A stretch of DNA of 64,000 bases, taken from an uncultured Gammaproteobacteria bacterium (GTDB taxonomy: Bacteria; Patescibacteriota; Patescibacteriia; UBA9934). Below, piece after piece: positions 22,277-61,865 of this stretch. A program made the translations under genes and the position numbers. The stretch spans positions 2-64,001 of the forward strand of contig CAYFME010000007.1 in assembly GCA_964344145.1 (NCBI GenBank), written 5' to 3'. The notes below the pieces were generated by a model. It was not told the origin of the DNA, did no database searches, and saw only the letters and a program-made list of their open reading frames with translations. Every line of letters starts with the position of its first letter. Position 1 is the first letter of the stretch.

Positions 22277-23272
22277 ATGGCAAAGATCCTTCTACCAACA
22301 CTAGACTATCCTCCCCGCACCGGTGGCGTTGCGCGTTACTTGGAGGCAATCAAACAGACCTTGGGGGATGACATGGACGTCCTCTTTTTTGACGATGCCC
22401 CTGGACGACTGTCGATGCTGTGGACGCTTTGGAAGCGTTCGCGATCGTATGAACAGGCTTGGACAAGTCACATTCTTCCAATTGGAACGATGTTGTGGTT
22501 GTTACGGCGGCGTTATAGTGTCTTTTTGCATGGCATGGACTTTGATCTTGCGCGGCGTAGTGCGTGGAAGCGATGGCTTACACGACGTATTCTGAGGCGC
22601 GCTCAGCACGTGTTTGCGAATTCACACGCGCTCGCTTCGGAGATTGGGTCGTTTTGCAACCGAAGGGTGGAAGTTGTGTATCCATGTGTGAGCGATGCGT
22701 TTGTAGAGGCATCGAATGTTGTGCGTCGCGAATCTCACGAAGGCGTAACGCTTCTGACGGTTGGACGATTAGTTGAGCGCAAAGGACATATGGATATGCT
22801 AGAGATCGTTCGTCGCAACAACGATCTGAAATACGTCATTGTCGGCGACGGACCAATGCGTAAGACGATTGAGGACTTTGTCGATGAACATGAGCTTGCC
22901 GATCGCGTTGAGTTATTACAGTCCGTTCCTGATCGCAAGCTGCCGTCGATCTATGCGCGTGCGGATATCTTTGTTATGCCTACACATAAATCTGAAGGTG
23001 ATCGTGAGGGCTTCGGTATCGTGTATCTTGAGGCGCAGCTGTTCGGCACGCCGGTTATCGCTGTTTCTCATCCCGGAGTTAATGAGGCGGTTGTTGAAGG
23101 GGTGGGTGGATTATTGATAAACAGCCATGAGGACCTAGATACGGCTGTAAAAAAGCTGGTTAATGGCCGAGAACTTCGGGAGCAGTTGGGTCGACGAGGG
23201 CAAGAGTTCGTTAAGGCAAAATTCACGAGAGAACACCAGTTTTCTGCTTTGAGGAGCTACATTCCCTCGTGA
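22277..23272 (+). CDS. GT4 (GT-B) glycosyltransferase
   Basis: The ExFGxxxxE motif EGFGIVYLEAQLFGTPVIA is present. Confidence 0.75.
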   Translation: MAKILLPTLDYPPRTGGVARYLEAIKQTLGDDMDVLFFDDAPGRLSMLWTLWKRSRSYEQAWTSHILPIGTMLWLLRRRYSVFLHGMDFDLARRSAWKRWLTRRILRRAQHVFANSHALASEIGSFCNRRVEVVYPCVSDAFVEASNVVRRESHEGVTLLTVGRLVERKGHMDMLEIVRRNNDLKYVIVGDGPMRKTIEDFVDEHELADRVELLQSVPDRKLPSIYARADIFVMPTHKSEGDREGFGIVYLEAQLFGTPVIAVSHPGVNEAVVEGVGGLLINSHEDLDTAVKKLVNGRELREQLGRRGQEFVKAKFTREHQFSALRSYIPS

Positions 23273-23276
23273 ACAT

Positions 23277-24011
23277 TTGGTACGATCGCCACAAATGTTA
23301 ACCGATATGGATCTTGTTTCGATCATCATCCCAACCTATCAGCATGCCGATAGTCTGCCGGTTTGCCTTGATTCGGTATTGGCTCAGACGTACGAGCCTA
23401 TTGAGGTGATCGTCGTGGACGACGGGTCGACGGACAATACGCAAGAGGTGCTTGCGTCGTATGCGCAGCGCGTGATGATGATCAGGCAAGAAAACCAAGG
23501 ACCTCAGTTGGCACGCATGCGCGGGTTTGAAGAGTCGAAAGGCGCATACGTGATTTTTTGTGATGCAGACGTCGAAATGCGACCAGACATGTTGGAGAGG
23601 TTGTACGGCGTGCTGCAGGCACATCCTGAAGCAAGTTATGCGTACTGCGGTTTCAGGTTTGGCTGGAAGCGATTTCATCCAGTGCCATTCGATGCACAGC
23701 GCCTCAAGCGCCATAACTATATTCACACGACTAGCCTCGTACGTCGTACGGACTTTCCAGGCTTTGACCCCGAGGTGAAGCGTCTACAAGATTGGGATGT
23801 TTGGCTGACGATGCTTGCACAAGGGAAGAAGGGTGTTGTCGTGGCTGAGGAGTTGTTTACCGCGCATATCGACGGTTCGTCACGCATCGGAACCGCCTGG
23901 ATGCCGTCGTGGATCTACAAACTGCCATGGAATATGATCGGATGGCGGCCGAAGCGTCTGCGAAAGTACGAAGAGGCGAAGCGGGCGCTCGTGAAGAAAC
24001 ACGGTTTATGA
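23277..24011 (+). CDS. family 2 glycosyltransferase
   Basis: VSIIIPTYQHADSLPVCLDSVLAQTY and IEVIVVDDGSTD are GT2 signatures. Confidence 0.7.
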   Translation: MVRSPQMLTDMDLVSIIIPTYQHADSLPVCLDSVLAQTYEPIEVIVVDDGSTDNTQEVLASYAQRVMMIRQENQGPQLARMRGFEESKGAYVIFCDADVEMRPDMLERLYGVLQAHPEASYAYCGFRFGWKRFHPVPFDAQRLKRHNYIHTTSLVRRTDFPGFDPEVKRLQDWDVWLTMLAQGKKGVVVAEELFTAHIDGSSRIGTAWMPSWIYKLPWNMIGWRPKRLRKYEEAKRALVKKHGL

Positions 24012-28997: not shown

Positions 28998-29897
28998 TCA
29001 AGGTTGTAGACCTTTGAGAAAGTCCGATGTTTTCATGCGTTGCTTGCCTTCGAGTTGGAGCTCAAGGATTTCCAGCGGCGTCGAGGAAGTGCCGAAAAAG
29101 AGGTGATCGTCGATGATGGCGTGTTCGCCGGGATGTAGGGGTTTGGCGCGCCAAACCCCTACAGGTTTTGTATCAAAAAATTTCAGGGTTTTTTGCTCCC
29201 ACATCGTCCATATTCCAGGCCACGGCATGTAGGCACGCCGTTTTGCATCGATTTGCTCTGCCGTTTCGCTCCAGTCGATTTTGCCATCTTCCCGGCTAAG
29301 GAGTTTGCAAAAGGTTGTTGTATCGTGATCTTGAGCCTGCGGCTCGATAGATCCGGCAACGTAGTTTTTGATCGTTTGGACAAGCAGCGGGGCACCGATA
29401 TCGTGAATGGTTGCTTGAAGATCAGGATACGTCTCGGTTCCGTTGAGCTGGATGGTCTCCTGCACCAAAATCGGTCCATGATCCATTTCGGCGTCTAGTA
29501 GCATGATGCTTACACCTGTCTTGTCGTCCTGATTCGCAATCGCTGCCTGCATCGGGGAAGGGCCACGGTACTTTGGTAAAAGAGACGGATGAACGTTGAC
29601 GGTCCCGTGCTTTGGAATATCTAAAACGTTTTTCGGGATCATCTTGCCGTACGCAACAACGACAAAGAGATCGGCATCAACGTCGATCGGTTCCTTTTTT
29701 AAACTCGCAGGTTGCAACACATCGATGCCGTGTTCCACCGCATAGTGCTTTGTCGCCGGGGCCGTAAGCATTTTCTTGCGACCAATAGGTTTGTCAGGCT
29801 GGCAAACAACCGTAGAAACAATCAGATCCTCGTCTTGATCGAGGGCCTGCAAAAAGGGAACAGCAAATTCAGGAGTACCGAAAAAGGCAATCTTCAT
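28998..29897 (-). CDS. fmt: methionyl-tRNA formyltransferase
   Basis: MKIAFFGTPEFAVPFLQAL and the HPSLLPKYRG motif. Confidence 0.85.
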   Translation of the reverse strand: MKIAFFGTPEFAVPFLQALDQDEDLIVSTVVCQPDKPIGRKKMLTAPATKHYAVEHGIDVLQPASLKKEPIDVDADLFVVVAYGKMIPKNVLDIPKHGTVNVHPSLLPKYRGPSPMQAAIANQDDKTGVSIMLLDAEMDHGPILVQETIQLNGTETYPDLQATIHDIGAPLLVQTIKNYVAGSIEPQAQDHDTTTFCKLLSREDGKIDWSETAEQIDAKRRAYMPWPGIWTMWEQKTLKFFDTKPVGVWRAKPLHPGEHAIIDDHLFFGTSSTPLEILELQLEGKQRMKTSDFLKGLQP

Positions 29898-34265: not shown

Positions 34266-34288
34266 GGCGTGATTATAGCACGTATTTA

Positions 34289-34351
34289 GAATACGCCACC
34301 CGGTGGCGTATTCCTCGTCGACTGCAGAATACGCCACCGGGTGGCGTATTC
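34289..34351. repeat. Family-2 palindromes, two inverted 25-bp copies (GAATACGCCACCCGGTGGCGTATTC and its reverse complement) 13 bp apart
   Basis: Copies lie at 34289-34313 and 34327-34351 in the divergent promoter region. Confidence 0.7.
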
Positions 34352-35838: not shown

Positions 35839-38472
35839 TTATTTCACGCTGACTTTTACTTTTTCTTTTACAACGTCGATAAGGACGTCTGCTTCTTCCG
35901 GCACCTCGTTCTTCACAATCTTCATTGCCAATGGATCCAGGATTTCCGTTTGAATGATGCGTTTTAGTGGGCGAGCGCCATACTGCGGATCAAACCCACG
36001 TTCCGCAAGGAACTTGCGCGTCTTTGCGTTTACTTTTAAGTCAATGTGACGCTGTTCTTGCAAGCGCTTTGCAACCTGATCGATCTGTAACTGAACGATT
36101 TCAGAGATGTGCTCCTGCGACAAGGCGTGGAAGAAAATAATGTCGTCGATTCGGTTGAGGAACTCTGGTCGGAACTGTTCACGAAGCTGCTCGATGACCT
36201 TGTCTTGTACACCATCATGCTCACTCTTGCCGTTTCCATCATCAAATCCAATGTCACCATGCTTTCCTGAGTTGAGGATCATGTCTGAACCAACATTCGA
36301 TGTCATGATGATGATGGTATTTTTGAAGTTGACCTTACGTCCCTTTGCATCGGTCAGATGTCCATCGTCAAGCACTTGCAGCAACATGTTAAAGACGTCC
36401 GGGTGTCCTTTTTCAATCTCGTCGAACAATACGACCGAGTAGGGTCGTCGGCGGATTTTCTCTGTGAGTTGTCCGGCCTCATCGTGACCAATGTATCCTG
36501 GAGGCGATCCGATCATCTTGCTGACTGAATGCTTTTCCATGTACTCGGACATGTCCACGCGAATGAGCGCGTCTTCATCATCAAACAAGAATTCTGCAAG
36601 CGCTTTCGCAAGCTCGGTTTTACCAACACCCGTTGGGCCCAGGAAGATGAATGATCCAATCGGACGCTTTTCTTCTGAGATGCCTGCGCGCGAACGTCGC
36701 AACGCATTGCTGACAGCCTTGATCGCTTCTTCCTGACCAATAACGCGCTTTTGTAGATTCTCTTCCATTTGCGCAAGCTTCTCCATTTCGCTCTTGAGCA
36801 TTTTGGAAACCGGGATCTGTGTCCATCGCGCAACAACACCGGCGATTTCCTCTTCGCCGATCTCTTCTGTTAACAATCCACGCTCTTCCTGGAACGATTT
36901 AAGCTCTTCTTGTTTCTTCACGAGCTCCTCACGCTTCTTTGGGATGATGGCGTAGCGAATCTCAGCAACCTTTTCCAAGTCACCTTTACGCTCTTCGATC
37001 TCGGACTCATTAGAAAGCTTGTCGATTTCATCTTTCAGATCACGAATGTTCTGAATGAGGTCTTTTTCGTTTTTCCAGCGGAGCTCGAGTTCACCAGCCT
37101 CTTCCTTATGATCGGCGATGGCTTTCTCGATTTCCTTGAGTCGAGCCTTTGATTTCTTGTCTTTCTCTTTGAGCAATGATTGACGCTCAACCTCAAGACG
37201 CATCTCCTCGCGTTTCAAGCGATCGAGATCTTCGGGCATCGAATCGATTTGCATGCGCAGTGCCGCCGCAGATTCATCAACAAGGTCAATAGCCTTATCT
37301 GGCAGATTGCGATCGGTAATGTAACGCGTGGAAAGATCAACAGCCGCGACAATGGCTGCGTCGCTGATGCGAACACCGTGGTGAATCTCGTATTTCTCTT
37401 TGATTCCACGCAGAATGGCGACCGCGTCATCGCGCGTTGGCTCATGCACCATGACCGGCTGGAAACGTCGTTCGAGCGCAGCGTCCTTTTCAATATACTT
37501 TTGATATTCCTTGAGTGTTGTGGCTCCAATGACACGCAGCTCGCCGCGGGCGAGGGCGGGCTTGAGCATGTTGGAAGCATCCATTGGCGACTCGTCACCC
37601 TTTCCAGCACCTACAAGCGTGTGAAGTTCATCAATAAACAAAATCATGCGCCCGTCGGCCTGTTCGATTTCTTTGATAACAGCCTTTAGACGTTCTTCAA
37701 ACTCACCGCGGAACTTTGTTCCAGCAACAAGAGAGCCAAGGTCAAGCGAGATGATCTCACGGTCCTTCAGCATCTCGGGCACGTCTCCGGCAACAATACG
37801 CTGTGCAAGCCCCTCTGCAATCGCTGTTTTACCAACACCCGCTTCACCAACCAGGACAGGATTGTTCTTCGTTCGACGGACGAGCACTTGCATGATGCGG
37901 CGAATCTCTTCATCGCGACCAATAATCGGATCCATTTTTCCTTCACGTGCACGATCGGTGAGATTGATCGAGTACTTTTCCAGTGCTTGGAACTTTGACT
38001 CAGGATCAGCGGAGTCGACCTTTTGATTTCCACGCACTTCTTTGAGCGTTTCCAAAACGCGTTCCTCGTTGATGCCGTGACTTTCAAGGAACTTACTTAT
38101 TTGTCGATTTGAATTGAGTCCAAGCAGTAAGTGCTCTGTTGAAATGTAGTCGTCTCCGAATTCCTTTGCTGTCTTGGCGGCATGTTGCAGCACCTTTGCA
38201 AGCATTGGACTCAGAAGAACTTGCCCCATGCCTGCCTGCCCGAATCCAAAGTTTTTTGGGAGCGACTCGATGATGTGATTGATGTTTTGTCGCAGATCAT
38301 TCATCGGTGCGCCCATTTTTTGCAAAAGCGTCACGACGATTCCGTCGTCTTGATGGGCAAGGGCGGCAAGAAGGTGAATCGGTTCAACTGCTTGCTGACC
38401 GTTTTCATTGGCAAGCATCTGTGCGATCTGAATGGCCTCTTGAGATTTTGAAGTAAAGTTGTTTGGTAACAT
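35839..38472 (-). CDS. clpB: ATP-dependent chaperone ClpB
   Basis: A Clp-N domain, two AAA+ modules ([15 protein letters not shown] and [15 protein letters not shown]) and a long coiled-coil M-domain are present. The start MLPNNF at 38472 is likely. Confidence 0.9.
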
Positions 38473-38547
38473 AAAATCGTCTCCTATTAGCACTCTCAAT
38501 GGTAGACTGCTAATTTTGCTTTGTCAAGAACTTGTCCAGATGCACAG

Positions 38548-38575
38548 TGGCCCTGCCGGAGGGGGCAGGGCCACA
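38548..38575. terminator. perfect GC-rich palindrome gtggccctgcc-ggag-ggggcagggccac downstream of the GC-rich gene
   Basis: Seen in the sequence. It has no U-tract, as in high-GC style terminators. Confidence 0.4.
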
Positions 38576-38591
38576 GGGCCACATGTTCGCA

Positions 38592-39140
38592 CTAGTGGTA
38601 GCGCGGGTGGGAGACGGAGAAGTGGTAGGAGTGGAAGACCATGTCGCCCATCGCGATGAGGAAGAAGGTGACGCAGAAGATGCCACACACGACGGCGCAG
38701 AAGCCGGCGAAGCCAGCGACCTCGGCGAGGTTGCGCACGCGGTGCGTGTACATCGAAGCAGGCATGGGCCAGTTCTTCGGGTGTCCCTTGAGCTCGTGGA
38801 CGAGCACGAGCAACGCGGCGTGCCGGTAGTGCTCGTTGTTCTGGATGCTCCTGCGGAGCCGCTCGCGCGCGTTGTACACGTGCGTGTAGAAGCTGCGGAA
38901 GCTCGGCTCCAGACCCTCCTTCGACATGAAGTTCAGGGCGTGCCAGAGCTTCCGGCTCGCGAGGTTGATGTCCAGCGTCTCCATGGCGCGGCTGATCGCG
39001 TCGCGGACGTTGCGCTCGACCAGGCGCCGCTCGGGCTCCAGCCAGATGACGTGGATCAGCCACCACGCGACGAAGCCGAGCAAGGCGATGGCGAGGAAGA
39101 GACCGGAGACTGACATGAAGGCGGCGGTGTGCATGGTCAT
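38592..39140 (-). CDS. hypothetical 2-TM membrane protein, ~65% GC (foreign)
   Basis: It is the only one of three overlapping ORFs with protein-like composition. TM helices lie at both ends. Confidence 0.45.
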   Translation of the reverse strand: MTMHTAAFMSVSGLFLAIALLGFVAWWLIHVIWLEPERRLVERNVRDAISRAMETLDINLASRKLWHALNFMSKEGLEPSFRSFYTHVYNARERLRRSIQNNEHYRHAALLVLVHELKGHPKNWPMPASMYTHRVRNLAEVAGFAGFCAVVCGIFCVTFFLIAMGDMVFHSYHFSVSHPRYH

Positions 39141-39158
39141 TCCTTGGGAAAGGGGCGA

Positions 39159-39215
39159 GTAAAATTAGCACATTGAGCCGCGATTGTCAATGTGCTCTAT
39201 GTGCCTTAAAATAGA
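39159..39215 (+). promoter_or_regulatory. promoter region for 39222: 10-bp inverted repeat agcacattga/tcaatgtgct overlapping a -35 TTGTCA, with -10 TAAAAT
   Basis: The sequence reads agcacattgagccgcgattgtcaatgtgctctatgtgccttaaaat. Confidence 0.35.
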
Positions 39216-39221
39216 CCCATT

Positions 39222-39626
39222 ATGACAATGAAAAAGGCTTGGCTTATTATCGGTATCGTTCTTCTCGCGCATGCGATTGGGTTGGTTTTCGACCTGTATG
39301 AGCTTATTGAGTGGTATGACGTTCCTATGCATGCAGGCGGTGGATTTGCCATGGGGGCGCTAGGATTGGCGATTTGGAACGAAGGCATTGAGGAGGTGCG
39401 GTTTAAAGGGGCTCTGCAACGTCATTTGAAATGGTGGCTTGTTCCTGGAATTGTCCTCGGGTTCGTGGCCTTAGTTGGCGTCCTTTGGGAAGTGCATGAA
39501 TGGCTATTGGATGAGTTTGTTGGTGGAGGTACGCTGCGCCAACCGGATGTTGCCGATACGATGGCCGACTTTATTTTTGATCTTTTGGGTGGTATAGCTG
39601 CTTTGGCTATCTGGAGACGTAAGTGA
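39222..39626 (+). CDS. hypothetical membrane protein (3-4 TM)
   Basis: The 134 aa product is hydrophobic and includes HEWLLDEF and DFIFDLLGG. Confidence 0.5.
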   Translation: MTMKKAWLIIGIVLLAHAIGLVFDLYELIEWYDVPMHAGGGFAMGALGLAIWNEGIEEVRFKGALQRHLKWWLVPGIVLGFVALVGVLWEVHEWLLDEFVGGGTLRQPDVADTMADFIFDLLGGIAALAIWRRK

Positions 39627-39653
39627 ACATTTGTGGCGATCGTCACAAATGTT
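39626..39653. repeat. Family-3 palindrome copy a (AACATTTGTGGCGATCGTCACAAATGTT), between 39222..39626 and the wecB-like gene
   Basis: A 28-bp near-perfect palindrome with one mismatch pair has a CGATCG core. TTGACC follows it. Confidence 0.65.
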
Positions 39654-39664
39654 GACCAACTAGT

Positions 39665-40480
39665 ATGCGTTCACACACGATCCTCAATGTAAAGATCGAC
39701 GATTTGTCAGACGATGAGCTGCGTCAGACGCTTTCAATGTGGCTGGAGTCGTCAAAAGGGAAGGTCATTGTGACGCCAAACGCGGAAATGTTACTTCTGT
39801 CGCGTCGCAACCATGCATTCTTGTCGCGACTCAATGCCGCAGATCTTTCGTTGCCGGATGCGGTGAGCCTACGTTACGCAGTAGCAGCTTTGACCGATGC
39901 GCAACTCGAGCACCGCCACACCGGCGTTGATACGCTCGAGATCATTGCGGCGCTTTGTCAGAAGCAAGGGAAGCGACTGTTATTGCTCGGGGGTGCGCCA
40001 AAGGCGGCTGATGCGTCTGCGAAGATGTTGTTGGATCGGTACAATGGATTAGATGTCCACGGCATTGATCCTGGCGAGGTGTTGTTCGAAAGCGGTCAAG
40101 TACGCATTCCAAGGGCTATAGAGGTCGTCATTCAGCGTCTTGAACCGGATGTTATTGCTGTTGCTCTCGGCCAACGCAAGCAAGAGGCGTTTATCGATCA
40201 ATACATGTCGTCGTTCCCAACGGTGTCATTTATGATCGGTGTTGGCGGGGCGTTTGAAATGATCTCCGGTCAGAAAAAACGCGGACCAAAATGGATGCGT
40301 GCTATCGGTCTGGAGTTCATTTGGCGCGTGTTGATTGAACCTCGTCGAGCTGGTAGGATCATCCGTGCAAGCATAGTCTTTCCGATCGTCGTCGCCGCTG
40401 AGTCGGTGAAGAAAAAACGGTTCATCAAAGCGCTCGGAGGCGTCTTTCCAGAAGTCTTTCGTCAACTGACCAATCGATAA
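39665..40480 (+). CDS. WecB/TagA/CpsF family (GT26) glycosyltransferase
   Basis: KVIVTPNAEMLL...LLLGGAP...GVGGAFE is the family pattern. Confidence 0.75.
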   Translation: MRSHTILNVKIDDLSDDELRQTLSMWLESSKGKVIVTPNAEMLLLSRRNHAFLSRLNAADLSLPDAVSLRYAVAALTDAQLEHRHTGVDTLEIIAALCQKQGKRLLLLGGAPKAADASAKMLLDRYNGLDVHGIDPGEVLFESGQVRIPRAIEVVIQRLEPDVIAVALGQRKQEAFIDQYMSSFPTVSFMIGVGGAFEMISGQKKRGPKWMRAIGLEFIWRVLIEPRRAGRIIRASIVFPIVVAAESVKKKRFIKALGGVFPEVFRQLTNR

Positions 40481-54799: not shown

Positions 54800-55504
54800 T
54801 CACGTTGTGTAAGCTTCAAGGATACCAATCTTGTGAGTTGGATCCAATTGTTGGGCAAGTGGCAGAAATTTTGTCCGTCTATTCAGTCCCACAAATATTT
54901 CATCAATGATCGTTAGTCCGGGATAAAGACAGACGTTAAAGAGGGCATCATCGTATGCTAAACCATCCACGCATAGAGATATCTCTTTTAATACATACAT
55001 GGCTAGAGCATCCAACTTTTCTTTTGGAAGGCTTGTAATTTTTGACGCCCTGTCTGGTCTACCATCTAGAATGGCTTGTCGGATGGTTTTACTAAATTCT
55101 TTGTTCTCTTTATAGAAGCGAGTACATGCATTGAGTCTATTTTTGTAACTCAACGAACCTGTAACATCTCTCCACATAACGAGATCCACCATTCTGCCTT
55201 GTGATTTCGGCAATTGATCAATAAGCCGATTAATAAGAAAATGTTTTTCCTCGCCAAGTCTCGTTGCCTTTCGAAGAGCCGCTTGTGGTGACTTGCTATC
55301 CAGGATTTCGATGTTAATTGCATGAATCTCATCTGGAATCAAGATTAGAACTCGATCTTTGGTGTGTTCTAGGCACCATCTTAGGTATTTAAGGACATTC
55401 GTTTCAGTAAAAAACTTGTTTCCTAGGCTTACGCCAAACCACAGATTGTGCTTTCTCGCCTCCACGCTCTCGCGCGTGACATCTAAATACGTTTTTATTT
55501 GCAT
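54800..55504 (-). CDS. tRNA-dependent cyclodipeptide synthase (CDPS, AlbC-like) homolog
   Basis: LWFGVSLGNKFFTETNVLKYLRWC matches the CDPS pocket motif G.S.GN.YF...N...L.W, including the catalytic Ser. YVLKE matches the Y...E pair. Length is 234 aa. Confidence 0.6.
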   Translation of the reverse strand: MQIKTYLDVTRESVEARKHNLWFGVSLGNKFFTETNVLKYLRWCLEHTKDRVLILIPDEIHAINIEILDSKSPQAALRKATRLGEEKHFLINRLIDQLPKSQGRMVDLVMWRDVTGSLSYKNRLNACTRFYKENKEFSKTIRQAILDGRPDRASKITSLPKEKLDALAMYVLKEISLCVDGLAYDDALFNVCLYPGLTIIDEIFVGLNRRTKFLPLAQQLDPTHKIGILEAYTT

Positions 55505-55506
55505 AA

Positions 55507-55866
55507 CTAACCAATCTCACTTCGACTATCGAGAAGATGCGGGTCGATGCGGCAGAGGATGCGATCGATCGTAATGGATGGAAACTGTTGTTCAAGTTCG
55601 TCGCAGATTTGCACGCGCACGCTTTCGATCATGTGACGTGCGGGAGCGTGACGACATGCGACATGCAAAACCGTTTGTTGAAACGACACGACTCGTGCGT
55701 CGACAAGATAGCGCTCGTCAAGAACGCGATCAAGCAGCTCGTTCGCCCGCTTTACAATCATCGCCGCCTCAACCTGTGCACCAATACCATGCCGCTTCAG
55801 TGCGCCGCCAATGAGCGAGTTCATCTGATCCGGACGCTTTTTGAATTGTCGTTGTAGTCGATTCAT
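55507..55866 (-). CDS. DciA-like (DUF721) replicative helicase loader candidate
   Basis: MNRLQRQFKKRPDQMNSLIGGALKRHGIG...VVSFQQTVLHVACRHAPARHMI is the family pattern. The start at 55866 is preferred. Confidence 0.5.
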   Translation of the reverse strand: MNRLQRQFKKRPDQMNSLIGGALKRHGIGAQVEAAMIVKRANELLDRVLDERYLVDARVVSFQQTVLHVACRHAPARHMIESVRVQICDELEQQFPSITIDRILCRIDPHLLDSRSEIG

Positions 55867-56501
55867 GTTCGCTCGTAGGGTTTGTACTGCTCTTTCATAC
55901 GACGGACGACGGATTCGCCGAGTTCGCGGATCGCCGGATCCACATCTGCATACTTCATGCAATACGTAATACTAAACTCAAAGTGTTCTGGATACATGTG
56001 CGCGTTTTGGTACTGAAACGCTTGAAGTGTTCCCTCGATCTTGTCGAGCGCCTTGATGACTTGCGACTCAAAGGTCTCAAGCTGTTCAGATTCAAGCCAC
56101 AAATCATAGATCTCCTGCGCTTGATCATCTGGAAGTGATGAAAAGAGCTCTCTGGCAGCAATCTTTTCACGGTCATGCTTTTGCGCTGCGAGATCATCGT
56201 TGTAAGCATGCGTATTCTTTCCTGTACAATCGTCGCCCATCGGACTGTCGTCACCCGCGATGATCTCTGGGAGATCATGAATCAGTGCCATCTTAAGCGT
56301 CTTTTCAAGATCAATCGGTTTGGACAGCTTTGGCGCGATCGTCATGACCATCATCGCCAGTCGCCACGAATGACTTGCGACGGACTCGTACCAAACAGGC
56401 TTAGGATAGTCTTTCCAACCGTACTGACCACGAAATCGTTCAAGTCGCTTAAGCGCCTCAATCGATGATACAAAATCGTACAGTTGATCGACGTCATTCA
56501 T
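55863..56501 (-). CDS. HD-domain phosphohydrolase (YfbR-like 5'-deoxynucleotidase family)
   Basis: HSWRLAMM...ALIHDLPEIIAGD. Confidence 0.7.
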   Translation of the reverse strand: MNDVDQLYDFVSSIEALKRLERFRGQYGWKDYPKPVWYESVASHSWRLAMMVMTIAPKLSKPIDLEKTLKMALIHDLPEIIAGDDSPMGDDCTGKNTHAYNDDLAAQKHDREKIAARELFSSLPDDQAQEIYDLWLESEQLETFESQVIKALDKIEGTLQAFQYQNAHMYPEHFEFSITYCMKYADVDPAIRELGESVVRRMKEQYKPYERT

Positions 56502-56514
56502 ACCTCACATCTTA

Positions 56515-59451
56515 TCAGCCCTGGCGAAACTCACAAATATCACGGAAGTCGCAGAACTTGCAGTTCCATCCGGGCGTTGCCTTGAAGTCCGATGCCTTCA
56601 TACGCGCAACCGTATCGAGAATTTCTTCTTGCAGCTTATCAACATCCTTCTGCGTTGGCTCGAAGCTCACAAGTGAGTTATCTTCGAGATAATGATACGT
56701 CAGTTTTGTGACCTTCAGCGGCGGGTCAAAGCAGCGCTCCGCAGCCAGCGCGTAGAGCACGAGTTGTCGTTTTTCCTGCCAACCAATCTTCTCCAACGTC
56801 TTTGGCGATCCTGTTTTGTAGTCGATGATTTCGTAACCGTCTTCGATCTTGTCGATGCGGTCAATGCGACCTTTGACAGTCACATCGCCAATCTTGAGCG
56901 TAAATCCTTTCTCGATCAGAGCAACTTCCGGCTGCTCTTTCATGAGATCGGCGTGAAAGGCTTTTAAAGAATCGAGTCCTTTGGATCGATATTCTTCGCG
57001 CACTTGATCATTTGGATACCATTCGTCGATCCAACTCGCTTCGTAGATTTCTTTAAGCACATCCAGCGATGGAACAGATGTGTCGGTTGGTTCGGCTGTT
57101 TCGAACAAGCTGCTCTGAGACGCCTGCCCTGCTGCAACAAGGCGTTCCATAAAGCGCTGCAGCGAGTTGTGCATGGTTTTTCCAAAGCTCATTTGGTAGC
57201 GCCCAAAGACCGGGACCTTAAGGATGTGTGCGAACTTGTATTGCAACGGACAACTTGTAAAGGCGGCAAGCTGTGTGAATGAAAGCGTTCCCGGCGTGAA
57301 CGTGGGTGCTACCGATGACTGATCAACGACGACTTCCGGCCCTTCGCCGAGCTTCACTTTTGCTCCTGATCGCGTTGTTGCGTCCAACTGCGCATCTTGA
57401 ATGAATCGTGAAGGTTTTCGCTTACGAACCCCGCCATAATCTTCGGCACTGAACATGTACAATCCTTCTTTTGCACGTGTCATGGCCACATAAAACAGCC
57501 GCCGCTCTTCCTCGATATGCGGATTCCCCCCCTCGTTGACGATTTCTTTGACAAGCTCATCATGAATCGGAATCGGATCGGCACGGCGCTGTGATGGAAA
57601 GCGTTGTTCAACAAGGTTAACGAGGAACACAAAGCGGAACTCAAGGCCTTTTGATGCATGCACGGTCATGACGTTTACAACATCTGGTCCAGCTTCCATG
57701 TCTGCCGAGAGTTTTCCGGCCTCGCCTGCCTGTGATTCATGATCAAAGACTTCAAGAAAATGATGAACGTGAGGATCGACGGCCGTTTGCTCGAACGCTT
57801 TCATGCGATTAAAGAACTGCTGTAGATACTCAAACTGTTCTTGCTGCGCCATATCAGGAAGTTCACGCACGCCAGCAAGAAGCCCGGTCTGTTTCATGAC
57901 ACTTACAAACAGCTCGCTTGACGGTCGACGTCGAGCTTCACGCTCCAGTGATCCGATGAGTTGCAGAAGCTCACCAATCCGACGCTTCCCTTCATGCGAG
58001 AGACCAGGCGCTGACACCATCGCCTGATACAACGAACAGCCCTTGCGACGCGTATGCATGGTTAGCTGAGCAAGGTCATCCTCACCAACGCCAAGTGTCG
58101 GATGACTCAGTACGCGATACATCGATGGACCGTCGTGATGCTGATCAATGACACGTAGATAGGCCAAGCCATCGATGATGATCGGCTTTGTGTAGAGGCC
58201 CGACATCGCCATGAAACGATACGGAATCCCCGCGTGCTCAAGCGCAGTGAGAAACGGGGTCGCGTTGTCGTTGGCGCGTACAAGAATAGCAAAGTCAGAC
58301 CATCGAGCCTCTTTTAATTGCCTGAGCTCAATAATCTTTTCAACAACGCCCTGCACTTCGTCATGATGTGTTTCGCATTGAATGTACTCGACAGAGCCGT
58401 CAACATCCTGATGGGCGACCAGTTCCTTGTTCAACCCTTCCCGATCCTCAAGGCGATTCGGGTTGTTCTGTTGGATGAGCGTGTACGCGGCATTGAGAAT
58501 GTTCGCGCCGCTTCGGTAATTCTTGGTGAGGACGACGCGCTTTGCATCAGGAAAGTCCTCACGAAAGAGCATGATGTTTGAAAGCGACGCTCCGCGGAAT
58601 TTGTAAATCGACTGATCATCGTCGCCTACGACCGTGATGTTGTTTGGCTTCGTGGTCAAAAGCTTGACGAGCTCGTACTGCGCCATGTTCGTATCCTGAA
58701 ACTCATCAACCAAAATGTACTTAAACTGCTTCTGATATTGCTTCAAGATGTCCGGACGTTTTTGAAAGAGTTCAATCGTGTACGAAATAAGATCAGCAAA
58801 GTCGAGCGCATTCTGCTCGAGCAAGATCTGTTGATACACACGATACGCACTCGCGAGTTCGTTGAGCTTCGCGATCTCCGCAAGAACATCACCACTTTCG
58901 GAGCTCGCAACACCTTCGACCGTATCCGCATCCATTTGTTTCTTCTCAACGAGCGCTGCGTAGTCGTCTGGAAGGACAAGTTCGTCCTTCAGTCGTGAGA
59001 TGTGCTTGAGCATGGAGCGTAAAAAGCGCGTCGGGTTGCCGCGCGGCTTGTAGTAATCAAGTTCAAACCGATCGATTTCGCGACGGACCATCAAGTACGC
59101 AGAGATCTCATCAAGCAAGAGAAACTGATCTGGCAAACCGATCTCAAGAGCGTGTTGTCGGAGAATCCGTTCGCAAAACGAGTGGAACGTGGAGATCCAA
59201 AGGTCGACGTAGCCAATGGGCAAAAGCTGGTCAACGCGCTCCTCCATTTCTGTTGCCGCCTTCTCTGTAAACGTGAGCGCGAGAACCTCCTCGGGCTTCG
59301 CCTTCCCCTGCTCTATTAGCCACGAAATACGCTGCGTAATGACGGTTGTTTTTCCTGTTCCGGCACCGGCAATGATCATCAACGGACCACCATCAAAGGT
59401 GACCGCCTCGAGCTGCTCGTCGTTCAGGCCATGGAGGAGTTGATCTGGCAT
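56515..59451 (-). CDS. UvrD/PcrA-type SF1 helicase fused to a C-terminal RecB/Cas4-like PD-(D/E)xK nuclease with a Cys cluster (AddA-like)
   Basis: Walker A is AGAGTGKTT. The nuclease motif is GRIDRIDKIEDGYEIIDYKTG...QLVLY. The terminal Cys cluster is CKFCDFRDICEF. Confidence 0.75.
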   Translation of the reverse strand: MPDQLLHGLNDEQLEAVTFDGGPLMIIAGAGTGKTTVITQRISWLIEQGKAKPEEVLALTFTEKAATEMEERVDQLLPIGYVDLWISTFHSFCERILRQHALEIGLPDQFLLLDEISAYLMVRREIDRFELDYYKPRGNPTRFLRSMLKHISRLKDELVLPDDYAALVEKKQMDADTVEGVASSESGDVLAEIAKLNELASAYRVYQQILLEQNALDFADLISYTIELFQKRPDILKQYQKQFKYILVDEFQDTNMAQYELVKLLTTKPNNITVVGDDDQSIYKFRGASLSNIMLFREDFPDAKRVVLTKNYRSGANILNAAYTLIQQNNPNRLEDREGLNKELVAHQDVDGSVEYIQCETHHDEVQGVVEKIIELRQLKEARWSDFAILVRANDNATPFLTALEHAGIPYRFMAMSGLYTKPIIIDGLAYLRVIDQHHDGPSMYRVLSHPTLGVGEDDLAQLTMHTRRKGCSLYQAMVSAPGLSHEGKRRIGELLQLIGSLEREARRRPSSELFVSVMKQTGLLAGVRELPDMAQQEQFEYLQQFFNRMKAFEQTAVDPHVHHFLEVFDHESQAGEAGKLSADMEAGPDVVNVMTVHASKGLEFRFVFLVNLVEQRFPSQRRADPIPIHDELVKEIVNEGGNPHIEEERRLFYVAMTRAKEGLYMFSAEDYGGVRKRKPSRFIQDAQLDATTRSGAKVKLGEGPEVVVDQSSVAPTFTPGTLSFTQLAAFTSCPLQYKFAHILKVPVFGRYQMSFGKTMHNSLQRFMERLVAAGQASQSSLFETAEPTDTSVPSLDVLKEIYEASWIDEWYPNDQVREEYRSKGLDSLKAFHADLMKEQPEVALIEKGFTLKIGDVTVKGRIDRIDKIEDGYEIIDYKTGSPKTLEKIGWQEKRQLVLYALAAERCFDPPLKVTKLTYHYLEDNSLVSFEPTQKDVDKLQEEILDTVARMKASDFKATPGWNCKFCDFRDICEFRQG

Positions 59452-59483
59452 GGCGGTAGTTTAGCACACTTACGAGAGGTCAA

Positions 59484-59508
59484 TATTTATGGCGATCGCC
59501 ACAAATTG
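59484..59508. repeat. Family-3 palindrome copy b (ATTTATGGCGATCGCCACAAATT), 35-57 bp upstream of the helicase-nuclease start
   Basis: A perfect GGCGATCGCC core sits in symmetric flanks. TGACC is adjacent on the minus strand. Confidence 0.6.
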
Positions 59509-59512
59509 TAAC

Positions 59513-60010
59513 CTAACGATATTCGTCGAGGATCCGATAAATGTAGACGTATTCTTCAACCCCAACCTCTTTTATAAGCTTACGAAAATTCTCAATAACA
59601 TTCGTTGTTCCGTGCCAGACACTTCGTTGAAGAAGTGTGAAGCCAGCCTCCTTAAGAAGCCTTCTAAGCATCGCCCTCACATTTCTCATTGGCTCGGGAA
59701 TGTCGAATACGAGCAAGTTGGCCTGCCCCTCTGGTAGACGCACCTTTTCGTCAATGATTTGTCGCTTTAACGCGTGTACACGACCCTTGCTTGTAAGTCG
59801 GTACTCAATTTTTTCACCCTTTTTTCGAAGTTCGATAAACCTCCTCTTAGCTAAGTATCTGACTTCGCGCATTCGTCTCGCCTCCATCTTCCATGCGACA
59901 CCATCGAGAGAGTACGTTCTATGTGGCAACGCCTCTCCGAGCTCGGAAGCAACATTAAATAGACTGACTAACGTGTCACTACATTTGGACATAGATTGGT
60001 GGGTGAACAT
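59513..60010 (-). CDS. winged-helix + Cas2-like (type I-E Cas2/VapD fold) domain protein; PaaX-like regulator candidate
   Basis: The C-terminal LLVFDIPEPMRNVRAMLRRLLKEAGFTLLQRSVW...VYIYRI parallels the Cas2 beta1-alpha1-beta2 pattern [33 protein letters not shown]. The N-terminus is wHTH-like. Start codon is the ATG at 60008-60010 (MFTHQS...) or the one at 59990-59992 (MSKCSD...). Confidence 0.5.
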   Translation of the reverse strand: MFTHQSMSKCSDTLVSLFNVASELGEALPHRTYSLDGVAWKMEARRMREVRYLAKRRFIELRKKGEKIEYRLTSKGRVHALKRQIIDEKVRLPEGQANLLVFDIPEPMRNVRAMLRRLLKEAGFTLLQRSVWHGTTNVIENFRKLIKEVGVEEYVYIYRILDEYR

Positions 60011-60033
60011 TTGTGGCGATCGTACCAAAAGTT
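60005..60033. repeat. Family-3 palindrome copy c (AACATTTGTGGCGATCGTACCAAAAGTT), overlapping the start region of the wHTH-Cas2-like gene
   Basis: It shares 21 identical bases with copy a (gtgaacatttgtggcgatcgt). Confidence 0.6.
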
Positions 60034-60044
60034 TACCACACCCT

Positions 60045-60080
60045 AAATCAGAAAAGACCCTTGTTCGGGTCTTTTCTTTT
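60045..60080 (-). terminator. intrinsic terminator for the beta-CA gene (aagaccc-ttgttc-gggtctt with U-tract on the minus strand)
   Basis: Seen in the sequence. Confidence 0.5.
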
Positions 60081-60089
60081 GCATGTTTT

Positions 60090-60503: not shown

Positions 60504-60639
60504 AAGAATGTCGAATGTTAGAAGTTAGAACGACGGGATAATACACGAAAAAAGGGAAAAAGTCAATACTCATCTTTTTTGAATGCACGACGACCGCCTC
60601 CCGAGAAGTGGGTGGCGGTCGTACGGGCATCGGAAGACG

Positions 60640-61323
60640 CTACTTGGCGGCCTCCGGTGCGTCGCGGCGCGGGAAGATGCCCCAGCGGAGCATGCGCTCT
60701 GCGTCACGGGTCCGACGCTGGTTGCGCTCCAGCTCACGGCGGGCCAGGAAGTCCGGAACGTTCTCCACGTGCGTGACGCCGCGGAAGGCGTCGTGACGGC
60801 CGTTGAGGCTCGCGACCATGCGCTCGACACGCGTATGCGCGAAGCGCCGCTGGAGCGCGCTGGCGATGGTCATGCTGGAGGCGTTGATGTGCTCCTCCTC
60901 CTGACGCTCACCGGGCTCGTGGCCCAGGAGTATCTTGCGGCCAGCACAGCAGGTGTGCTCCAGCACGATGATGTGCTCGGTGTGGTGCTCGCCGATCAGC
61001 GGCGCGATCTCCTCCTCGATGATGCGGTCGCGGTAGCTCTCGTCGTCGGCCATGCGCGGCACGATCCCGGCCAGGCAGGGCCCGCCGTCGTTGAGCCAGC
61101 GCAGGTTCGGACGGAAGCCCGCCGCGCGCTCGAGCTGGTTGCCCACGCCGGCGCGCACCAGGTGGCGGTCCCAGGCCGTCTGCAGCCCCGGCTCCACGCA
61201 GCCCAGGATCAGGACCTGCGCACCCTCCGCCAGCGTGAACTGATCCATCCCGCCGTCGGGAATCCACCGGTACATACCGGTCACTCGTAGGGCCATGCCC
61301 ACTCCACTCATCAGCAAGTTCAT
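60640..61323 (-). CDS. hypothetical protein, ~66% GC (foreign)
   Basis: It is the most protein-like of three overlapping ORFs. A GC-rich hairpin (60575-60607) lies downstream. Confidence 0.4.
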   Translation of the reverse strand: MNLLMSGVGMALRVTGMYRWIPDGGMDQFTLAEGAQVLILGCVEPGLQTAWDRHLVRAGVGNQLERAAGFRPNLRWLNDGGPCLAGIVPRMADDESYRDRIIEEEIAPLIGEHHTEHIIVLEHTCCAGRKILLGHEPGERQEEEHINASSMTIASALQRRFAHTRVERMVASLNGRHDAFRGVTHVENVPDFLARRELERNQRRTRDAERMLRWGIFPRRDAPEAAK

Positions 61324-61418
61324 CTCGACCTCCTGCTACTACTAGCCACCGCGGCGTTCGTAACGGCGCAATACTAAACCAAAACAGCCCATCTGTCAAG
61401 ATGCGCTGTTCTCTGTTT

Positions 61419-61865
61419 CTATTTGATTGGAGAAGGCTTTCCAACGTCCCGATACTTCCCTTTTCGCGCCACTTTGTATCGTGCGAGTTCCCGCTCGAGG
61501 TGCACAAGTGCATCTGCGTAGGCGACGTCACCCTTCTCTCGTGCCTCTTGTAGCCGCTTTTCAGCCAACTCTTTCGCCTTTTCAATCTCTTCAAGCGCGA
61601 GCTCGTCAGATCGCTCTGCTGTGTCTGCAAGGATGATGACGGTATTGTCGGGCAGAACTTCGATCAAACCCGTTGAAACGGCCAACAGAGAGCTCGTAGA
61701 GCCGTCTTTGAGCCGCATCTCACCCGCTTTTAGCAGAGAAACGAGAGGGACGTGGTTTGGCAAAACCGTAATCTCGCCGTTCTCTGTCATCGCTGAAATA
61801 GAATCAACCGAATCTTCAAATACGATTCGCTCTGGCGTCACTATTTTCAGCGAGATTTTGCTCAT
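61419..61865 (-). CDS. atpC: F0F1 ATP synthase epsilon subunit
   Basis: ISLKIVTPERIVFEDSVDSI... Confidence 0.85.
   Translation of the reverse strand: MSKISLKIVTPERIVFEDSVDSISAMTENGEITVLPNHVPLVSLLKAGEMRLKDGSTSSLLAVSTGLIEVLPDNTVIILADTAERSDELALEEIEKAKELAEKRLQEAREKGDVAYADALVHLERELARYKVARKGKYRDVGKPSPIK

Follow-up and report, generated by a model that had tools for sequence, protein, structure and literature searches.

A probable PaaX-like repressor in a Patescibacteria contig, ending after its Cas2-like domain and encoded between two copies of a palindrome

The stretch of DNA analysed here, called the window below, covers 64,000 nucleotides of contig CAYFME010000007.1 (assembly GCA_964344145.1) from an uncultured bacterium of the Patescibacteriota, and it carries, on the minus strand, a gene for a small protein with an N-terminal winged helix and a C-terminal Cas2-like domain. 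From its sequence and its predicted structure, this protein is most likely a member of the PaaX family that ends after the Cas2-like domain, without PaaX_C, and it is referred to as mini-PaaX. A palindrome stands on either side of the gene, one copy before it and one after it. It is likely that mini-PaaX is a trans-acting PaaX-like repressor with dedicated operators, which would control its own gene and a small regulon. A preliminary description of the same DNA had put forward, as its headline, a degenerate or novel defence module without CRISPR (clustered regularly interspaced short palindromic repeats), built from mini-PaaX and the two genes next to it, and had given as the alternative a PaaX-like regulator whose winged helix acts on the palindromes, with autoregulation and a small regulon. 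It is to this alternative that the fold of the protein, the family-wide bracket and the co-variation of the site before a WecG-type gene all point.

The three consecutive minus-strand genes of the preliminary description are indeed found, as the open reading frames (ORFs) 55863-56501, 56515-59451 and 59513-60010, and its domain calls are borne out by Pfam, with HD_3 for the HD hydrolase, UvrD-helicase (PF00580), UvrD_C (PF13361) and PDDEXK_1 (PF12705) for the helicase with its Cas4-like nuclease, and PaaX_M for the small protein with its winged helix and Cas2-like domain. The Cas2-type peptides quoted there (LLVFD, PMRNVRAMLRRLLKEAG, FTLLQRSVW and VYIYRI) are all present in the translation. 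The match of PaaX_M (PF20803, the 'PaaX central Cas2-like domain') covers residues 98-158 of 165, with E=2.8e-12 and 47 bits against a cut-off of 24. The NCBIfam cas2 model TIGR01573 also matches (27.5 bits, cut-off 24.5), and the PaaX equivalog TIGR02277 gives 28.2 bits, far under its cut-off of 264.55. PaaX_C (PF08223) has no Pfam match in the protein, the chain of which stops at residue 165, directly after the last Cas2-like strand. The mini-PaaX ORF is readable from ATG 60010 (59513-60010, 165 aa), and the start is probably ATG 59992, giving 159 aa, because two homologues (60% and 53% identity) begin at the position of this second ATG.

The AlphaFold2 model of the small protein, calculated with 67 family sequences, has a pLDDT (predicted local distance difference test) of 88.8 and a pTM (predicted template modelling score) of 0.82, and consists of a winged helix, a linker helix and a domain with beta-alpha-beta-beta-alpha-beta topology. 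The winged helix is formed by helices 4-23, 37-40 and 44-55 and by a beta wing, residues 59-72. When this model is compared with the PDB by Foldseek, the top match is E. coli PaaX (8A39, E=4e-5), followed by about twenty Cas2 chains and the PaaX-like structures 3KFW and 3L09. The Cas2 chains superimpose, for most of them, with a root mean square deviation of 2.5-3.7 over 65-78 columns, with probabilities of 0.87-1.0 and template modelling scores (normalised on the target) of about 0.42-0.61. The preliminary description had guessed at this structure, leaving open Cas2/VapD or PaaX; the guess was right, with PaaX coming out ahead of Cas2. The family profile gives the same division when searched against the PDB, as PaaX 8A39 is matched through the winged helix (residues 54-113) and several Cas2 chains are matched through the C-terminal domain. 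The profile is needed here, as a single-sequence search of the PDB with the small protein yields only spurious matches to ribosomal protein uS3. In the Cas2 alignment, Asp103 is aligned with the aspartate that closes strand beta1, which is catalytic in Cas2, and this motif is kept in the small protein as FDIPE.

The palindrome unit, as obtained by aligning four sites, is 36 bp long (GGTnAACATTTGTGGCGATCGCCACAAATGTTnACC) and is laid out as GGTnAACATTTGTGG-CGATCG-CCACAAATGTTnACC; outside these 36 bp no similarity is seen. The preliminary description had counted exactly three copies, on the basis of a 28-mer, and had overlooked the one at 23272. The 28-mer matches exactly only at 39626-39653, has 2-3 mismatches at 23272-23299 and 60006-60033, and has 4 mismatches (counted by hand) at 59482-59509. 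When the 20-nt core is searched with up to 3 mismatches, four sites are found (23276, 39630, 59486 and 60010), against 0.02 expected by chance, and a half-site search of the window finds nothing past the same four. Two of these sites, named U (upstream) and D (downstream), enclose the mini-PaaX gene. The left arm of U abuts the predicted -10 element of this gene; a palindrome had been said to overlap the gene start and it does lie there, but with the likely ATG 59992 its place is the promoter and 5' leader, not the start codon. The palindrome assigned to the promoter region of the helicase-nuclease gene is also there: the centre of D falls about 44 nt ahead of the predicted helicase transcription start, over the -35 region.

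A bracket of this kind is a property of the family. An exhaustive HMMER search against representatives of 50%-identity clusters retrieves 1,824 of these at E<=1e-3, of which 257 also reach E<=1e-10; among the matches listed, nearly all have 160-210 aa and align over both halves. They come from Uhrbacteria, Parcubacteria, Doudnabacteria, Saccharibacteria and other Patescibacteria, and where the sources give a name it is 'CRISPR-associated endonuclease Cas2' or 'PaaX'. The Cas2 beta1-alpha1-beta2 signature is formed by the residues F102, D103, P105, R112, R116, Q128, S130 and V131, all of them invariant or nearly so. The gene surroundings were compared for the loci of the two nearest homologues (L004 and L005), for 13 loci from species-representative genomes and for 3 loci reached by exact-protein look-up, using for the scanning an 8-sequence alignment. 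In L004 and L005, both on short contigs, the layout of the window is repeated (palindrome, gene, palindrome, UvrD helicase), with other palindrome sequences, the core being TTTGTCGCGATCGCGACAAA in L004 and the palindrome TTTGGTCCGATCGGACCAAA in L005. Comparison of 240 nt around the start with 290 nt around the stop shows, for 15 of the 17 loci, a palindrome of 14 nt or more common to both flanks, with no more than one mismatch. The upstream copy begins 12-66 nt before the start codon, and the downstream copy begins at -22 to +37 nt from the end of the stop codon. In a stricter test, both flanks had to contain a palindrome with arms of 8 or more, and the two cores had to match. Of the family genes, 10 of 16 pass, compared with 1 of the 267 control genes taken from these loci; this one, which looked like a second bracketed gene in L013, is unrelated to the mini-PaaX family.

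The palindromes match within a locus and differ between lineages (GTGGCGATCGCCAC in the window, GTCGCGATCGCGAC in L004, GGTCCGATCGGACC in L005, TGTCCCGATCGGGACA in L023 and ATGCGGCCGCAT in L019). Their centres are mostly CGATCG, with two loci having CGGCCG and one having a short loop. No further copies past the two per locus are found in the loci of the relatives (up to 20 kb each). On the protein side, the presumed recognition-helix region is highly variable and the Cas2-like domain is conserved, which parallels, as a correlation only, the variable arms and the constant centre of the palindromes.

The geometry of the solo site before the glycosyltransferase gene at 39665 is conserved as well. 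A palindrome upstream of a wecB-like gene had been noted at 39626; the site is real, and the gene belongs to the WecG/TagA family (PF03808) and not to WecB. An orthologue of this WecG gene occurs in L027 (66% identity), followed, as in the window, by the gene of glutamyl-tRNA synthetase. In L027, TTTGTCGCGATCGCGACAAA is found at 831-850, about 10 nt before the WecG ATG at 861. It is exactly the core that flanks the regulator gene in L004, and it stands at the same place at which the window has a palindrome of its own type (39626-39653, ATG at 39665). The position of the WecG site is thus conserved while its sequence follows that of the sites at the regulator gene, which argues for a trans-acting DNA-binding protein and against a random dispersal of repeats.

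In the mechanism proposed here, a dimer of mini-PaaX would bind the 36-bp palindrome. At the U copy it would cover the -10 element and the transcription start of its own gene, causing autorepression, and at the D copy, which extends from the stop codon, it would overlap the -35 region of the leaderless helicase promoter; through the two further copies, directly before the WecG/TagA gene and the GT2 (family 2) glycosyltransferase gene, a small regulon would be controlled. The Cas2-like domain would be the dimerisation domain, and there would be no C-terminal effector domain. We infer the DNA binding, the repression (as opposed to activation) and the promoter positions from sequence, and the wide-spaced binding geometry from the analogy with E. 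coli PaaX, the operator of which is described in a review as TGATTC-N27-GAATCA, a 39-bp site with widely spaced half-sites. Of the regulator of repair and glycan genes considered in the preliminary description, the PaaX-like regulator and the glycan part, with its WecG and GT2 sites, are in agreement with these data; the helicase is possibly a target.

The promoters predicted at this locus are of one class. Five matches to the motif TGnTA[AT]A[ACT]T-N5-9-ATG are found in the window, all of them directly at the start of ORFs of 296-978 aa, compared with 1.65 in shuffled sequences, so that this organism seems to make common use of extended -10 promoters and leaderless mRNAs. One of these belongs to the helicase gene, and the helicase mRNA would therefore be predicted to be leaderless. 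The corresponding element of mini-PaaX (Table 1) would place the transcription start near the centre of palindrome U, a classical position for autorepression. Upstream of it, the Pro_CA_2 gene probably has its own intrinsic terminator, so that U is not needed as the terminator of that gene. A consensus scan of three palindrome regions reports no sigma-70 promoter and no terminator.

Table 1. Features of the mini-PaaX locus and of the other palindrome sites (window positions).
Feature	Position	Strand	Remarks and basis
mini-PaaX gene (winged helix and Cas2-like PaaX_M domain, no PaaX_C)	59513..59992	-	159 aa from ATG 59992; ORF list, Pfam, NCBIfam, AlphaFold2, Foldseek
UvrD/PcrA-type superfamily 1 (SF1) helicase with C-terminal PD-(D/E)xK Cas4-like nuclease, four Cys	56515..59451	-	978 aa; ORF list, Pfam, NCBIfam
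HD_3 / YfbR-like phosphohydrolase	55863..56501	-	212 aa; Pfam, NCBIfam
Upstream palindrome U, putative autoregulatory operator	60002..60037 (28-mer 60006-60033)	.	sequence match; same position in L004, L005 and other loci
Downstream palindrome D	59478..59513 (28-mer 59482-59509)	.	begins on the final base of the stop codon; equivalents at -22 to +37 nt of the stop in other loci
Solo palindrome, putative operator of a regulon member	39622..39657	.	shares bases with the TGA stop of a gene for a 134-aa membrane protein; 7 nt from its end to the WecG/TagA ATG
WecG/TagA/CpsF-family glycosyltransferase, putative regulon member	39665..40480	+	PF03808, E=1.7e-38
Fourth palindrome copy	23268..23303	.	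34-nt gap from a GT4 gene (stop 23272) to a GT2 gene (ATG 23307), polysaccharide cluster
Extended -10 motif occurrences	5402, 17238, 41914	+	motif scan of the window
Extended -10 motif occurrences	34280, 59466	-	motif scan of the window
Helicase extended -10, TGCTAAACT	59458..59466	-	6 nt before ATG; motif scan; kept in L004, L005, L025, L026
mini-PaaX extended -10-like element, TGgTAAACT (predicted)	60030..60038	-	sequence; kept in L005, L026; motif class supported by the window scan
Hairpin and T-run, AGAAAAGACCC..GGGTCTTTTCT, probable intrinsic terminator of the upstream Pro_CA_2 gene	60050..60077	-	sequence; not reported by the consensus scan

Several observations weigh against a repressor with dedicated operators. 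No effector-sensing domain is evident in mini-PaaX. Conservation is highest at the centre of the site, CGATCG, and in the Cas2-like domain of the protein rather than in its winged helix, which is unusual for a classical operator. Two paralogues from one genome are 55% identical, with the identity almost wholly in the Cas2-like half, and have different winged helices and an identical palindrome. In L006 and L009 the palindromes are perfect over 48-50 bp, which is long even for a PaaX-type footprint. Both solo sites of the window lie in gaps (34 and 38 nt) between co-directional genes, where no promoter is recognisable. L004 and L027, which provide the WecG comparison, come from different samples, and that they belong to one lineage is deduced only from their identical palindrome (20-mer). 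The distance from D to the -10 element of the helicase varies (about -44 in the window, about -43 in L026, -54 in L005 and about -150 in L004), and several loci have a convergent gene after the downstream palindrome (that of threonyl-tRNA synthetase in L016, uppS in L021, and L019), so that the palindrome cannot there be an operator of a neighbouring promoter. Together, the variable distance and the convergent genes indicate that D belongs to the regulator gene and not to its neighbour. It is possible that D acts through cooperative binding with U (looping) or as a roadblock at the end of the gene.

The same syntenic site is occupied differently in other relatives, and this bears on whether the bracketed gene is a regulator or a mobile unit. 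In L026, the closest relative, a single palindrome lies between the Pro_CA_2 terminator and the helicase promoter, with its left flank corresponding to the U junction of the window and its right flank to the D junction; L025 has no palindrome at this site. Among the window, L005 and L004, which have the gene, the regulator is 53-60% identical and the adjacent helicases are 85-94% identical. The simplest account of these sequences would be loss of the gene by recombination between the flanking repeats, combined with fast co-evolution of regulator and site. Alternatively, the palindrome-gene-palindrome unit could be a mobile or selfish cassette that moves or recombines at CGATCG, its Cas2-like domain processing DNA and the solo palindromes being targets or footprints. 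The presence/absence polymorphism and the identities just given agree with such a cassette, as do the persistence of the bracket where no promoter comes after it, the conservation of precisely the palindrome centre and the Cas2-like motif D103/R112/R116/Q128/S130, and the reappearance of arms of the upstream type (TTTGGTAC) at the solo site 23272. We nevertheless regard it as unlikely. No recombinase, transposase or HUH domain is found in or beside the cassette, there are only two copies per locus in the relatives, and the protein scan of viral contigs finds no relatives. The solo palindrome of L026 is equally well explained by a deletion between two direct repeats of 28-36 bp, and the WecG site keeps its position while its sequence tracks the cassette palindrome. 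In addition, the half-sites proximal to the gene are not systematically better matched than the distal ones (compared by hand, for L004 only).

Two more specific models for such an origin were rejected. For a phage or mobile origin, the viral contigs contain no relatives at the protein level, and their DNA gives one chance match, in a coding region of a high-GC phage contig. For terminal inverted repeats with target duplication, the hand comparison in L004 gives 13/14 for the gene-distal half-sites and 11/16 for the gene-proximal ones. A further form of the cassette idea, which we hold to be quite unlikely, is that the unit is a minimal self-contained element, in which the Cas2-like domain binds or cuts the CGATCG dyad and the cassette can be excised, exchanged or inserted at cognate palindromes. 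If this were the case, the family would represent a surviving intermediate form between enzymes of the Cas2/VapD type and transcription factors of the PaaX type, and the many genes annotated as 'Cas2' in CRISPR-poor Patescibacteria would be copies of such an element.

It is also conceivable, with a very low probability, that the palindromes act in the transcript and not as DNA operators, as hairpins for termination, attenuation or stability, perhaps bound by the Cas2-like domain, which resembles an RNA recognition motif. Some relatives of Cas2 and VapD are ribonucleases, the arms would give very stable hairpins, copy D is found at the stop codon in nearly all loci, and the solo sites are located between a stop codon and the next start codon. 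Yet the mismatches between the arms show no strand bias, as those compatible with G.U pairing number 9 in the sense and 8 in the antisense orientation (with 14 other mismatches). No T-run comes after the palindromes, no consensus terminators are found and there is no Rfam match. Moreover, if the transcription of the regulator gene starts near the centre of U, as predicted, the RNA would contain only one arm, and a hairpin alone leaves unexplained why both copies at the locus and the WecG site have the same sequence within a lineage. It is similarly improbable that the palindromes are recognised by something else, for instance another regulator or a restriction-modification or methylation system with CGATCG as its target, so that the link with mini-PaaX would be indirect. 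In agreement with such a factor, the window has 61 copies of the hexamer CGATCG where its base composition predicts 16.7, a 3.6-fold excess, and the centre of the palindromes is invariant in most lineages. Against it, the bracket accompanies the gene into many unrelated contexts, with arms that change with the gene lineage, the strict bracket separates family genes from the control genes as given above, and no other candidate gene is common to the loci.

The defence module of the preliminary description is the reading that we find hardest to credit, at a probability close to nil. Its constituents do resemble Cas3'' (HD), Cas4 and Cas2, the three genes are adjacent on one strand, and PADLOC reports Cas2 and GajB-type matches. 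These are, however, the only PADLOC matches and are generic (the GajB-type one being to UvrD); neither GajA nor a partner protein is found, and the HD, Pro_CA_2, DciA and cyclodipeptide synthase (CDPS) genes have no match. That Cas1 and a CRISPR array are lacking, as had been stated, is in agreement with the searches made here: TRF, as a tandem-repeat search, finds no array in the 64-kb window, the Pfam list contains no cas genes, including cas1, within about 10 kb, and no Cas domains occur in the loci of the annotated relatives. No paa genes are found within about 10 kb either, by the same list. The three genes are also not co-conserved, an outcome that the preliminary description had itself named as speaking against its reading. 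Three relatives, with helicases 87%, 81% and 63% identical, have in common a block consisting of ATP synthase, a 199-295-aa protein without Pfam match, Pro_CA_2, the helicase, a DciA-like protein, a small membrane protein, MreB, MreC, a 157-165-aa protein without Pfam match (probably MreD), penicillin-binding protein 2 and GreA. In all three (L025, L026 and the P0254 locus) the helicase is kept, and the Cas2-like, HD and CDPS genes are absent from this block. Members of the mini-PaaX family adjoin varied, unrelated genes in other loci.

The helicase fusion is, moreover, ubiquitous in the phylum, with at least 120 full-length homologues of 52-87% identity in Patescibacteria, for which the sources name PcrA or helicase II, and many more that pass E<=1e-50. 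Its nuclease domain has the Cys pattern C...CxxCx5C (SCPLQY ... NCKFCDFRDIC) and the motifs IDRID and IIDYKTG, and its equivalog scores are all under the cut-offs (cas4 53.5 of 65, addA 223 of 708, pcrA 520 of 911). The HD gene scores above the cut-offs for PF13023 (117 bits) and PF12917 (52 bits), and reaches 39.6 against a cut-off of 122 for the YfbR-like 5'-deoxynucleotidase equivalog NF003009. On this gene-order and domain evidence, the helicase-nuclease and HD hydrolase genes are ordinary genes of a housekeeping block and not Cas-like partners, and the regulator, HD and CDPS genes have been inserted into that block or lost from it.

In structure, PaaX is the known system to which mini-PaaX comes closest. 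PaaX of E. coli and Pseudomonas (8A39), like the PaaX-like 3L09 and 3KFW, has an N-terminal winged helix and the central Cas2-like domain PF20803. It is a phenylacetyl-CoA-responsive repressor of its own promoter, and its operator is similar in length to the 36-bp element described here. Mini-PaaX differs in having no PaaX_C, and hence no known effector site, in its size (159-165 aa, against about 300), in the lack of paa genes near it, in its equivalog score (28 against a cut-off of 265 bits), and in its site, which is conserved over the full length with a CGATCG centre and of which two copies bracket the gene. With Cas2 and VapD it shares the ferredoxin-like fold, strand beta1 ending in Asp, an Arg-rich helix alpha1, Q-x-SV[WF] and a TIGR01573 score above the cut-off. 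It is distinguished from these by its fusion to a winged helix, by the lack of Cas1 or a CRISPR array in the window or the loci of the annotated relatives, and by a genomic signature that looks like that of a regulator with operators.

Genes of the REP (repetitive extragenic palindrome) and RAYT (REP-associated tyrosine transposase) type and integron cassettes with attC sites resemble the locus in that a gene is flanked by palindromic copies, with extra copies in short gaps just past stop codons and with presence/absence polymorphism. Here, in contrast, a HUH transposase or integrase is lacking, the copies are very few (four in 64 kb, two per locus elsewhere), the palindromes are perfect and loopless (apart from one locus with a short loop), and the position of the solo site is conserved between lineages. 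The neighbouring 978-aa protein has, in common with AddA, AdnAB and RecB-type helicase-nucleases and Cas4, a UvrD-type SF1 helicase and a PD-(D/E)xK nuclease with a four-Cys cluster; it differs in scoring best to PcrA/UvrD and in being a single phylum-wide orthologue within a housekeeping block.

A literature search gave no paper linking PaaX with Cas2, or PaaX with Patescibacteria, and the bracketed layout across a large family of this phylum is apparently undescribed. The family comprises 1,800 or more 50%-identity clusters, for the most part from Patescibacteria, and its members are routinely named 'CRISPR-associated endonuclease Cas2'; the evidence points to their being PaaX-type DNA-binding proteins. 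The 'Cas2' label can inflate the counts of CRISPR components in a phylum noted for the lack of them. To our knowledge, almost nothing is known of transcription control in Patescibacteria. Each family member carries a readable putative operator in two copies at its gene, from which regulons could be predicted genome by genome. The bracket, the CGATCG dyad and a protein and site that apparently co-evolve fast while their locus stays fixed would provide a natural system for studying how the specificities of a regulator and its operator diverge, and they may also bear on the recruitment of the Cas2 fold into regulators.

In a few loci the bracketed regulator gene has neighbours of DNA metabolism. 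It is directly before a different UvrD, independent of the clade of the window, in L008, directly before a 3'-5' exonuclease and a class II ribonucleotide reductase in L010, and between RecA and an RNase_T-type exonuclease fusion in L013. There may be a recurrent link between the regulator and such genes, with the restriction that few loci are concerned and that the idea is post hoc. A LexA-like DNA-damage regulator for the phylum was considered and set aside as a lead only, since other loci and the solo sites of the window concern glycan, tRNA and other genes; the LexA network in Patescibacteria is reportedly the subject of a published study. Genes resembling those of type IV secretion (PrgI, TraC-like, a weak TrbL/VirB6 match and a partial AAA_10/TraG-type ATPase) adjoin the family member of L019 (10001-20525, on a 949-kb contig), the palindromes of which have GCGGCCGC at their centre.

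Within the housekeeping block, a tRNA-dependent CDPS gene is found at 54800-55504 (minus strand; TIGR04539 81 bits, and Pfam CDPS), an accessory natural-product gene that seems unexpected in a reduced Patescibacteria genome. Stretches of higher GC content with long overlapping ORFs on both strands occur at 60570-61630 and 38524-39171. In the first of these regions, a 227-aa ORF (60640-61323, minus strand) has no Pfam match on record, and the relatives have unannotated proteins of 199-295 aa at that position. Nine other G+C-rich hexamer palindromes were checked in the window and occur in 9-33 copies each. A perfect 30-bp palindrome, TGTAGGGGTTTGGCGCGCCAAACCCCTACA, is located at 29134-29163. Two tandem palindromes, GAATACGCCACC(C/G)GGTGGCGTATTC, at 34289-34313 and 34327-34351, adjoin, on the minus strand at 34280, the promoter of a 449-aa ORF, which is of the leaderless type (TGCTATAAT-N6-ATG), and would seem to be operators of a family of their own. 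At the 5' end of clpB (35839-38499, minus strand), a HrcA operator resembling CIRCE (controlling inverted repeat of chaperone expression), TTAGCACTCTCAATGGTAGACTGCTAA, is present at 38487-38513, with 1 mismatch to TTAGCACTC-N9-GAGTGCTAA, and the same CIRCE-like element is found upstream of the WecG orthologues in L028 and L029.

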